Source: a virus
Reading direction: 5' to 3' (one strand)
Virus record (IMG/VR): IMGVR_UViG_3300042945_000290
DNA: 41,528 nt
Shown here: piece by piece, positions 28,261 through 35,119 of the stretch
Layout of the letters: each line of letters starts with the position of its first letter
How positions within the stretch are numbered: the first letter of the stretch is position 1
Notes under the pieces: model-generated
Told to the model about the DNA's origin: nothing
What the model saw: the letters and a program-made list of their open reading frames with translations, nothing else
Databases searched by the model: none
Translations under genes and position numbers: made by a program

Positions 28261-28449
28261 ATGAACGCACAATTTAAAGCAGCATCTTTATCATGGTTTC
28301 GTGCAGCAGCATCTGCTGCAGTAGCACTATACCTAACAGGAGTAACGGATCTAAAGACACTAGGAGCTGCAGCATTGGCTGGATTCCTTGGACCAGTTCT
28401 TAAGTATTTGGATTCATCAGCAACTGAGTTTGGACGAGGCGCAGAGTAA
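28261..28449 (+). CDS. Holin-like small membrane protein (62 aa)
   Basis: AAGGAG RBS. Two hydrophobic segments (AAASAAVALYLTGV and LGAAALAGFLGPVL). It is the first gene of the lysis cluster. Confidence 0.5.
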   Translation: MNAQFKAASLSWFRAAASAAVALYLTGVTDLKTLGAAALAGFLGPVLKYLDSSATEFGRGAE

Positions 28450-28452
28450 CAA

Positions 28453-28656
28453 ATGACACCTAACGAATGGGCTGGCATTGCCGTAGCCGTTTTCACTTTG
28501 ACTGCTGGCTTTGCCAGCTTAGTTCGTTGGCTAGTAAAGCACTACCTTGTAGAGCTTAAACCAAATTCTGGATCGAGTCTTCGTGACTCCGTCGATAGAT
28601 TGGAGCGACAAGTTGAAGAGATTTATCGCATCCTTCTTTCTCGCAATAACTCTTAG
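28453..28656 (+). CDS. Type-II membrane protein with helical ectodomain (67 aa), i-spanin-like
   Basis: N-terminal TM segment WAGIAVAVFTLTAGFASLVRWLV followed by a charged helical tail SLRDSVDRLERQVEEIYRIL. Its 3' end overlaps the lipoprotein ORF, which is in the +1 frame. Confidence 0.6.
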   Translation: MTPNEWAGIAVAVFTLTAGFASLVRWLVKHYLVELKPNSGSSLRDSVDRLERQVEEIYRILLSRNNS

Positions 28657-28804
28657 CGGTTGCGGTTACCAAGGCTGGGTTAGATATCCCTGCCAAGAGT
28701 TTGAGAATTGGGAAAAGCCTGAGTGTAATCCCCCACAATGTTTACCAACTGGTACTTGCACCAAAGACATTTTGCCTGGAGTATTTGATGAACCAAAGAA
28801 ATAA
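28613..28804 (+). CDS. Small Cys/Pro-rich lipoprotein (63 aa), o-spanin-like
   Basis: TTG start at 28613 with GGAG 7 nt upstream gives MKRFIASFFLAITLSG-C, a canonical lipobox. The track's GTG at 28583 is an alternative start. The mature part is CGYQGWVRYPCQEFENWEKPECNPPQCLPTGTC... Confidence 0.55.
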   Translation: MKRFIASFFLAITLSGCGYQGWVRYPCQEFENWEKPECNPPQCLPTGTCTKDILPGVFDEPKK

Positions 28805-29063
28805 ATTAACCCCAGAAGAGCTACACGCAAGACTGATTGTAACAATTGGAATCATCCTTGCAATTGTATTTGCTGGTTCTGTCTTTGCATTGCTCTATGC
28901 ACTGCTATTTATCACACAACCATTAGGCGAACAGGCACCTAACGATGCTGCATTTATTGATCTTGTTAGTACCTTGTGTGTATTTCTTACTGGTTCTCTT
29001 GCTGGAGTACTTGCAGGAAACGGATTAAAGTCTAAACCAAAAGAGAAAAAAGATGGAGAATAA
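28788..29063 (+). CDS. Multi-pass membrane protein (91 aa), second holin candidate
   Basis: I chose the internal ATG at 28788 with a GGAG RBS. Hydrophobic stretches are LIVTIGIILAIVFAGSVFALLYALLFI and FIDLVSTLCVFLTGSLAGVLAG. Confidence 0.6.
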   Translation: MNQRNKLTPEELHARLIVTIGIILAIVFAGSVFALLYALLFITQPLGEQAPNDAAFIDLVSTLCVFLTGSLAGVLAGNGLKSKPKEKKDGE

Positions 29064-29569
29064 TGAAACCTGTAGCCAAGAGAGCCACGCCTGCTGCTCT
29101 TGCTGTGCTTCGCCAAGCGACGGCACTGCAACCAAAGCGGAAGAAAGCAAGCGATGGTCTTCTACCATCTGCTGCTCACCAGAAAGCGAGCCCCAATTCG
29201 GATCACAATACTGGGCTAGCAGTAGACCTTACCCATGATCCAGACAATGGTATTGACTGTGCAGAAATTTTTGAGAAACTTAAAGAAGACAAACGTGTTT
29301 CATATCTTATCTTTCAGGGTCGGATCTGGTCTAAAGAAAAATCCAAGCTGGGAGACAGACGGTACACTGGGAGTAATCCTCACAATAAGCATCTGCATAT
29401 TTCTATTGTTGCTAGTGGTGCTGCCGATACTTCTCCTTGGTTTTGGTGGATGAATCAACCAAAGATTATTAATCAAGTTAAGGCAGCCGTTGCTGCCATC
29501 CCAATAAAGAAAGCTTACCCAGCAGAAGATACATCTAAATGCTGTCAGCACTGTCCATCTAAGAAGTAG
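29063..29569 (+). CDS. Endolysin candidate, LAS/M15-type zinc peptidase (168 aa)
   Basis: SDHNTGLAVDL (SxHxxGxAxD) plus NPHNKHLHISI (HxH) fit the LAS metallopeptidase zinc-ligand pattern. TAATG overlap with the membrane-protein gene. Confidence 0.6.
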   Translation: MKPVAKRATPAALAVLRQATALQPKRKKASDGLLPSAAHQKASPNSDHNTGLAVDLTHDPDNGIDCAEIFEKLKEDKRVSYLIFQGRIWSKEKSKLGDRRYTGSNPHNKHLHISIVASGAADTSPWFWWMNQPKIINQVKAAVAAIPIKKAYPAEDTSKCCQHCPSKK

Positions 29570-34354: not shown

Positions 34355-34866
34355 TAGAATTAACTGAAGATGAGATCATGGGTGCTCTTAGGTTTATCCA
34401 CAGGGTGAGGGCAAATAAAAAGGAGTTCGATGTTACGGATCGTAAGTTTGATAAAAATAATTCCTCGTATTCCGTTAATCTTATGGGTAGGTTGGGTGAG
34501 GTGGCAGCTGCTCGGCTCCTTGGGGTACCGACGGATGAAACGATTACGCCTGGCGGTGATAACGGACACGACTTGCAGACAGTATTGGGTAAATCTATAC
34601 AGGTTAAGACGTCAACATTATCGCAATTAATATTTAATGCACCAGAATTATTTATATCTGATGTGGCTGTACTTGTAAAATTTTCTGGGGATAAACAACT
34701 TCCACATGTGGATAGTTTGTTTGATGTAATTGGTTGGACAACACGAGAAAACTTCCTTGCTAATCATTACTTACATGACTACGGTTATGGCACTCGGTTA
34801 GTAATGGATGCTAACCAACTACAACCGATAGAGGTACTCATCAATGAAATATCCAGACTTCACTAG
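34345..34866 (+). CDS. hypothetical protein (173 aa), possible PD-(D/E)XK-like fold
   Basis: The GEVAAARLLG...GGDNGHDL...IQVKTS pattern is weakly nuclease-like. Confidence 0.7.
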   Translation: MAVIELTEDEIMGALRFIHRVRANKKEFDVTDRKFDKNNSSYSVNLMGRLGEVAAARLLGVPTDETITPGGDNGHDLQTVLGKSIQVKTSTLSQLIFNAPELFISDVAVLVKFSGDKQLPHVDSLFDVIGWTTRENFLANHYLHDYGYGTRLVMDANQLQPIEVLINEISRLH

Positions 34867-35119
34867 TGCAACTTGCAGAGGAATTGGTTTAGAGTTTTTC
34901 TTTCAAGAGCACAACAATGCTACAAGTAGTGAAGAACGGAAAGCTAAATCAATATGTAAGGAGTGTCCAGTAATGCAAGCTTGTTTAGAATGGGGTCTTG
35001 CCCATGAGTCACATGGTATATGGGGTGGCACTTCTCCGAGAGAGAGAATGCAAATCAGAAAAAAACTTGGTATAGAAGTTAAACAAATATTGGTAAGTCA
35101 TTATGTCAACACCAAGTAA
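34844..35119 (+). CDS. whiB: WhiB-family transcription regulator (91 aa)
   Basis: Four Cys in C-x26-C-x2-C-x5-C spacing (CRG...CKECPVMQAC) and a GIWGG turn. Confidence 0.85.
   Translation: MKYPDFTSATCRGIGLEFFFQEHNNATSSEERKAKSICKECPVMQACLEWGLAHESHGIWGGTSPRERMQIRKKLGIEVKQILVSHYVNTK

Follow-up and report, generated by a model that had tools for sequence, protein, structure and literature searches.

A lipoprotein gene written over the end of a lysis-cassette membrane-protein gene has a downstream two-transmembrane protein gene as its constant genomic partner

In the virus record IMGVR_UViG_3300042945_000290 of IMG/VR, the small membrane-protein gene p67 is overlapped at its 3' end by lipo63, a +1-frame gene for a putative lipoprotein. 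This arrangement raises the question of whether the two products form a spanin, as in the overlapped gene pairs of other phages, or whether lipo63 belongs with a different partner. The window, that is, the whole stretch of 41,528 nucleotides that was analyzed, has a GC content of about 40-48%. A preliminary description of this DNA had placed p67 at 28453..28656 and a +1-frame reading frame from TTG 28613 behind a GGAG 7 nt upstream, and both were read as described. The genes of the lysis cluster and a WhiB-like gene further downstream are listed below (TM, transmembrane; RBS, ribosome-binding site).

28261..28449, + strand: p62, open reading frame for a small Ala/Gly-rich holin-like membrane protein, a core cassette gene
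28453..28656, + strand: p67, ATG start, 67 aa, core lysis-cassette protein with one TM segment
28602..28605, + strand: RBS of lipo63, GGAG, 7 nt 5' of the TTG
28613..28804, + strand: lipo63, TTG start, 63 aa, +1 frame relative to p67, prolipoprotein
28613..28656, + strand: p67/lipo63 dual-coding overlap, 44 nt, in which the p67 C-terminus coincides with the lipo63 signal peptide
28788..29063, + strand: p91, protein with two TM segments, phrog_25359
29063..29569, + strand: p168, candidate endolysin, VldE-like (LAS/M15-type) zinc peptidoglycan peptidase with a Cys-rich C-terminal tail
34844..35119, + strand: WhiB-like gene, four-Cys pattern and GIWGG

The cluster is tightly packed. The end of p62 and the start of p67 are separated by a gap of 3 nt, lipo63 and p91 overlap by 17 nt, and p91 and p168 overlap by 1 nt. 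No promoter-like or terminator-like sites were found on the + strand within 28261-29569, and the idea that lipo63 and p91 form an autonomous moron with its own promoter and terminator was rejected for this reason. Pfam and PHROG scans of p62, p67, lipo63, p91, p168, and a 635-aa protein returned no functional names. The product of p62 matched phrog_37724 (E 3e-4) and would act as a holin; its gene changes position among relatives, lying either before p67 or after the endolysin gene.

The assignment of the region to lysis, which had already been made in the preliminary description, held up, since p168 models as a zinc peptidoglycan peptidase. The best Foldseek matches of its AF2 model (pTM 0.73) were to the zinc-binding C-terminal domain of VldE, a pneumococcal protein (9flj/9flm, E 5e-4 to 8e-4, TM 0.55-0.59 on the target), followed by weaker matches to MepA, DD-peptidase, LdcB, and VanY. 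The residues H48, D55, H110, and H112, which fit the zinc ligands H-x(n)-D and H-x-H, were invariant. Matches at the sequence level were weak (VanY, E 0.11; 9flh, E 0.23, in an equally weak PDB sequence search). In addition, p168 matched phrog_32486, and its database relatives carry PF26571. The C-terminal tail was modeled with low confidence and ends in the Cys cluster C-C-Q-H-C-P. The model suggests that p168 is a LAS/M15-type wall peptidase and likely the endolysin.

The sole phage records with DNA similarity to the window were OX376640 and OX376641, which are the phages LanE43-AprE7 (E7) and LanE43-AprF5 (F5). Both have been cultured and lyse strain LanE-43 of 'Ca. Planktophila', a member of the order 'Ca. 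Nanopelagicales' (PMC10202952). One database relative of p168 belongs to Freshwater phage uvFW-CGR-AMD-COM-C403. From the kinship with E7 and F5 together with this relative of p168, a low-GC freshwater actinobacterium is the most likely host. The WhiB gene, which had been cited earlier as a marker of actinobacterial-type phages, was also confirmed, at the position listed above. Members of the Nanopelagicales are monoderm Actinobacteriota without mycolic acids.

The product of lipo63 starts with a 16-aa signal, MKRFIASFFLAITLSG, which is followed by Cys17 (codon 28661-28663). The n-region contains K2 and R3, the h-region is FIASFFLAITL, and the lipobox LSG-C matches the pattern [LVI][ASTVI][GAS]C. 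The mature part of 47 aa contains 5 Cys and 7 Pro, in agreement with the lipobox and the Cys/Pro-rich mature part described before. The codons of this signal peptide overprint the final 14 codons of p67 in the +1 frame. The sole Pfam match was to LPAM_1, a generic lipid-attachment signal (E 0.005, below the cut-off), and no match was obtained in PHROGs.

To evaluate the coding status of this frame, pN/pS was computed on a 32-codon core of lipo63 with 72 distinct homologous DNA copies. The lipo63 frame was open in 72/72 copies, with a pN/pS of 0.16 and a pS of 0.83, compared to stops in 31/72 and 72/72 copies and pN/pS values above 1 in the other two frames. The TTG start and the GGAG (GGAA in a few) were kept in all 43 distinct copies of the overlapped class, in which a GTG upstream of the TTG was rarely present. 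Nucleotide diversity was 0.10 in the 44-nt overlap compared to 0.23-0.39 in the flanks, and the third-position diversity of p67 dropped from 0.44-0.57 to 0.14 within the overlap. Such low diversity is the pattern expected from two coding constraints on one stretch. lipo63 is a genuine gene under purifying selection.

That lipo63 is a chance reading frame or wrong-frame artefact, and that the true gene is a longer p91 starting at TTG 28701, can be practically discarded: many database homologues of p91 have annotated lengths of 120-139 aa that include a 5' extension over the lipo63 region, and the window itself contains the longer frame (28701-29063), but the p91-frame reading of the lipo63 core had stops in 31/72 copies and a pN/pS of 1.67, which rules the longer p91 out. 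Since the upstream extension made by gene callers swallows the lipo63 region, lipo63 is under-annotated in public data. Some sources name the upstream-extended p91 'polyferredoxin' (P0110-P0228).

Homologues of lipo63 formed 108 clusters at 90% identity, and a profile search gave 230 clusters at 50% identity. The signal peptide varied freely across the family, and the lipobox was kept in most members, on at least three unrelated signal peptides; the other features of a lipoprotein signal were likewise kept across unrelated signal-peptide variants. Four further cysteines were invariant, and the ectodomain with the core R-Y-x-C-Q...N-W...C-x-x-P-x-C...C was nearly so. A minority of the homologues carried a plain hydrophobic anchor instead of the lipobox Cys, among them those of MW202675 and of the loci L167, L169, L172, L173, L175, and L176. 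As lipobox and plain TM anchor are interchangeable, the domain probably works at the cytoplasmic membrane. The AF2 model of lipo63 (pLDDT 79) showed little regular structure, with about 35 structured residues and no enzyme-like fold. Foldseek and a wide VIA-align search of this model against the PDB gave no fold match, so the fold yields no functional lead. A natural fusion of lipo63 and p91 was not present among the 149 listed representatives that were inspected. One protein of 121 aa (P0353) joins in frame a p62-like, holin-like N-terminus and a lipo63-like lipoprotein; it may be a real fusion, a frameshift, or a gene-calling artefact.

The partner of lipo63 was then sought in collection scans, each of which covered the best 80 of about 600 loci. 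Among 82 loci found via the endolysin (best 80 of about 600 per scan), p67 was present in 78, compared to 12 with lipo63 and 14 with p91, two of the latter being cut at the locus edge. Thus p67 occurred without lipo63 in about 64 of 78 loci, including those of the cultured Planktophila phages E7 and F5. Where lipo63 and p91 were missing, p67 ended two bases before the start of p168. A different picture emerged from the loci found via lipo63 (best 80 of about 600). Here p91 followed lipo63 in 79/79 loci that extended far enough, while p67 overlapped lipo63 in 65, lay upstream without overlap in 4 more, and was absent in 11, with a p62-like gene directly upstream in 9 of these 11. When genome-collection loci were found by the p91 profile, with lipo63 not used, a lipo63-like gene stood directly upstream in 17/17, one of them degenerate. 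The two genes were also adjacent in DSL-LC01, a metagenome-assembled Actinomycetia phage of 129 kb, and in MW202675 (61 kb). The constant genomic partner of lipo63 is p91, not p67, and in the phage group of the window lipo63 and p91 are an optional insert between p67 and the endolysin gene.

Loci that have lipo63 and loci that lack it do not share the same C-terminal tail of p67, and the exchanged unit therefore seems to consist of the p67 tail, lipo63, and p91. Some relatives carry a 305-aa gene at the exact junction of p67 and the endolysin gene (L040:2083-3000; also L042 and L043). As the same junction holds lipo63 and p91 in the window, it looks like a recurrent insertion site for accessory genes.

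Outside the phage group of the window, unrelated aquatic phages with different endolysins also carry the lipo63/p91 pair in their lysis regions. Across lineages, the pair is accompanied by holin-like genes and by endolysins of the VldE-like, GH19-like, or CHAP-like kind, on contigs with GC contents of 37-60%. The loci L165, L166, and L170 have a layout in which the pair comes after a CHAP-like endolysin gene. In the high-GC lineage of the MW202675 type (L164:3279-4691; L167, L169, L172), the module is followed by a small Lys-rich protein, then by a signal-peptide-bearing nuclease-like protein (so annotated in MW202675) and a GH19-type endolysin annotated as chitinase A. In DSL-LC01, no endolysin was seen near the pair in the stretch examined, and the pair adjoins a 100-aa holin-like gene; a WhiB-like reading frame lies a few hundred bases downstream of it (L163:5706-6188). 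The host labels that metagenome-assembled genomes give to p91 contigs (Fluviibacter, Pseudomonadales, Bacteroides, Bathyarchaeia, and others) were scattered and the contigs mostly short, and these labels were set aside; such contigs are probably mis-binned phage DNA.

Next, the p67 protein was compared with the inner-membrane component of a spanin. A spanin consists of an inner-membrane protein of type II, whose periplasmic domain is a long coiled coil, and of an outer-membrane lipoprotein to which the C-terminus of that protein is bound; Rz contains two coiled-coil domains and a linker (PMC6139136). The p67 protein matched phrog_9869 (E 1.6e-15) and is a highly conserved core protein that is present in the cultured Planktophila phages and carries the motif R-W-L-V-K-H-Y-L-x-E-L-K-P-N-G-G-S-S. 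The topologies of p67, lipo63, and p91 given here are predictions from hydropathy and charge according to the positive-inside rule. In the 112 members of the p67 family, the N-terminal flank had a mean of 0.06 K+R and a net charge of -0.7, compared to a net charge of +2 in the 15 residues after the TM segment. By the positive-inside rule, this distribution predicts N-out/C-in, and p67 is probably of this orientation rather than the type II membrane protein that it had been taken for.

These observations bear on the reading of p67 and lipo63 as overlapped components of a two-part, spanin-like complex for disrupting an outer barrier of the host. The +1-frame overlap lies inside a lysis cassette beside a VldE-like endolysin gene, p67 is a TM protein with a helical, charged tail, and lipo63 is a small lipoprotein whose mature part is Pro/Cys-rich and similar in size to Rz1. 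However, the two genes are not an obligate pair, as the co-occurrence counts show in both directions. The tail of p67 after the TM helix has only about 40 residues, compared to about 130 periplasmic residues in Rz (PMC6139136), and it is predicted to face the cytoplasm. An outer membrane is out of reach for the lipo63 homologues that have a plain TM anchor, and hosts of the type described above are monoderm, lacking both an outer membrane and mycolic acids. Failed co-occurrence, topology, the short tail, the host type, and the plain anchors together argue that p67 and lipo63 are not a spanin, and we regard this reading as very improbable. Of the earlier interpretation as a spanin-like overlapped pair, the lipoprotein gene, the overlap, and the lysis cassette stand, but p67 and lipo63 do not co-occur as a pair. 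Moreover, E7 and F5, the nearest relatives in culture, lyse a monoderm host of the Nanopelagicales and do not have lipo63.

The distant locus L176 also speaks against the spanin reading, as it contains a separate candidate pair in addition to its lipo63-like and p91-like genes. A 148-aa protein with a TM segment and a coiled coil (L176:447-893) overlaps by ATGA the gene of an 87-aa lipoprotein with LVTG-C (L176:890-1153), just upstream of the lipo63-like/p91-like pair. The contig has a GC content of 42% and was binned as Lishizhenia. Neither Pfam nor PHROGs gave support for these two proteins, which are a candidate for a true spanin that coexists with the module.

Attention therefore turns to the constant partner of lipo63, p91. 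This protein matched phrog_25359 (E 1.4e-36), a family of unknown function and without annotation into which the distant relatives of p91 also fall, and its own family comprises more than 2,300 clusters at 90% identity. The TM segments span residues 16-34 and 59-77, and the predicted topology is N-in/C-in, with a net charge of +2.5 at the N-terminus and -1.1 in the loop, and a Lys-rich C-terminal tail. The most conserved stretch is the predicted outer loop, F-x-T-Q-P...N-D..F, a motif that is invariant in the p91 set A2. This loop is predicted to face the same side of the membrane as the invariant ectodomain of lipo63. Size and predicted topology fit a class II holin, which is small and has two TM domains, the N-in/C-in orientation, and a charged tail. 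No curated holin family was matched above threshold; PF07332 (Holin-X) gave E 0.034 and 14.6 bits, compared to a cut-off of 28.4.

We propose, with moderate confidence, that lipo63 and p91 constitute an accessory lysis module, in which a holin-like protein is combined with a partner on the outer face of the membrane. In this model, p91 would sit in the cytoplasmic membrane with both termini inside as a class-II-holin-like protein, and mature lipo63 would be fixed to the outer leaflet of that membrane through a lipid or, in some relatives, through a hydrophobic anchor of the plain type. There, lipo63 might bind the conserved acidic outer loop of p91. The pair would most likely consist of a second holin and a regulator on the outer face that adjusts the timing or the occurrence of the membrane lesion. 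The genes p62, p67, lipo63, p91, and p168 abut or overlap, and lipo63 and p91 would be co-translated. The pair would not act as a spanin and would form no bridge to an outer membrane. More tentatively, lipo63 and p91 may represent an undescribed two-component membrane system of lysis cassettes that controls lysis from the outer face, for example by sensing superinfection or the state of the envelope; such a system would be widespread among aquatic phages whose hosts belong to several phyla, with a lipoprotein export signal that repeatedly arose, or is maintained, by overprinting on the adjacent gene. This two-component reading pictures lipo63, equally tentatively, as a tiny disulfide-knotted ectodomain on the outer face of the membrane that holds p91.

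Another function at the end of infection is conceivable for the same two proteins. LysZ of corynephages and mycobacteriophages has been proposed to act on membrane-anchored glycopolymers (PMC13123898), and by analogy the pair might be a third-step envelope disruptor for barriers other than an outer membrane. This would agree with the position in the lysis cassette, with a small ectodomain at the membrane's outer face, the site at which lipoglycans are anchored, and with the precedent that actinophages need extra lysis factors (PMC13123898). But the extracellular domain of LysZ is large, in comparison with the roughly 35 structured residues of lipo63 and their lack of an enzyme-like fold. Most close relatives, which probably infect similar hosts, do without the module, and the module is also found on contigs of very different GC content. 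We consider an LysZ-like role decidedly unlikely.

The pair could also be a superinfection-exclusion or receptor-masking device that protects the infected cell or prevents progeny from adhering to debris. Known exclusion proteins offer parallels in T4 Imm, a small protein with two TM segments, and Sp, a membrane-tethered ectodomain, as well as in the lipoproteins Llp, Cor, and Ltp. As is usual for exclusion genes, the module is optional and moves between closely related phages, and its absence from most of them fits an exclusion or host-range function equally well. The ectodomain of lipo63 is nearly invariant, as it would be if it bound a conserved target of the host or the phage, and in the window the module adjoins tail-fibre genes. 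Against this, the neighbors of the pair are consistently holin-like and endolysin genes in unrelated phages whose virion modules differ. The pair is also translationally chained to these genes and has no promoter of its own, which implies late expression and argues against exclusion. Moreover, the pair has no similarity to known exclusion families in Pfam or PHROGs. We judge exclusion or masking to be unlikely. The preliminary description had named a new envelope-disruption or superinfection-exclusion device in a monoderm as its fallback; this idea survives in part, but such a device would be made of lipo63 and p91, not of lipo63 and p67.

These results have several consequences. An overlap like that of Rz/Rz1 together with a lipobox does not by itself make a spanin, and co-occurrence statistics separate the two cases. 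lipo63 and p67 illustrate natural dual coding cleanly: the same nucleotides encode a signal peptide and the tail of a different membrane protein. The pair of lipo63 and p91 is a defined and abundant two-gene module that carries no annotation; at least three kinds of endolysin accompany it in its lysis cassettes. The 'Ca. Nanopelagicales' are among the most abundant freshwater bacteria, and the lysis of monoderm bacteria, especially of uncultured freshwater Actinobacteriota, is poorly understood. If p91 is a holin with lipo63 as its outer-face partner, the module would be a new regulatory layout for phage lysis; if the pair is an exclusion device, it would be the first one proposed for phages of this host group.

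Compared with known systems, the locus most resembles at first sight the overlapped spanins of lambda (Rz/Rz1), P2 (LysB/LysC), and T5 (Kongari et al., 2018, PMC6139136). In both, the lipoprotein signal overlaps the 3' end of an upstream TM gene in the +1 frame, the genes lie in the lysis cassette, and the mature lipoprotein is Pro/Cys-rich and has about 40-47 aa. Here, however, the two genes are not an obligate pair, and the constant partner is the downstream p91. The upstream protein is predicted to be N-out/C-in with a 40-residue tail, the host type is monoderm, and some homologues have TM anchors.

Small accessory phage lipoproteins and membrane proteins that are variably present are also known in T5 Llp, T1/phi80 Cor, TP-J34 Ltp, and T4 Imm and Sp. 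These differ in that they are expressed early or from a prophage and are not chained to holin or endolysin genes, and no homology of lipo63 to Llp, Cor, or Ltp was detected in the PHROG, Pfam, and PDB fold searches. The T4 holin T and the antiholin RI, which acts in lysis inhibition, are a model of a holin with an outer-face regulator. Here too, a small extracytoplasmic protein is tethered to the membrane, paired with a holin, and optional for lysis. T has a large periplasmic domain, in contrast to the exposed loop of about 14 residues in p91, and the likeness is one without sequence or fold similarity. The family phrog_25359 includes p91 and its distant relatives, and its entry makes no mention of the constant association with an upstream membrane-tethered protein rich in Cys.

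Closer parallels come from actinophages. Mycobacteriophage LysF1a has 88 aa and two TM domains with the N-in/C-in topology, and LysF1b has one TM domain with N-out/C-in (PMC13056207); p91 and p67 match them in size and predicted topology, a likeness that comes from these features and not from sequence. Phage D29 encodes LysA2a and LysA2b together with gp64, an accessory, dispensable lipoprotein that can modulate lysis (bioRxiv 10.64898/2026.08.27.747656). gp64 (137 aa) is similar to a sugar-binding protein, and its gene lies far from the cassette (bioRxiv 10.64898/2026.08.27.747656), unlike lipo63, which has a 47-aa domain of the disulfide type and a gene that overlaps its neighbors. The D29 and LysF1 regions nevertheless share with the window an actinophage lysis region that combines a small protein with two TM segments and an N-out/C-in protein with one, and in D29 also a lipoprotein. 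By analogy, LysF1a/LysF1b, the regulators LysA2a/LysA2b, and D29 gp64 may be regarded as the nearest precedents for lipo63 and p91.
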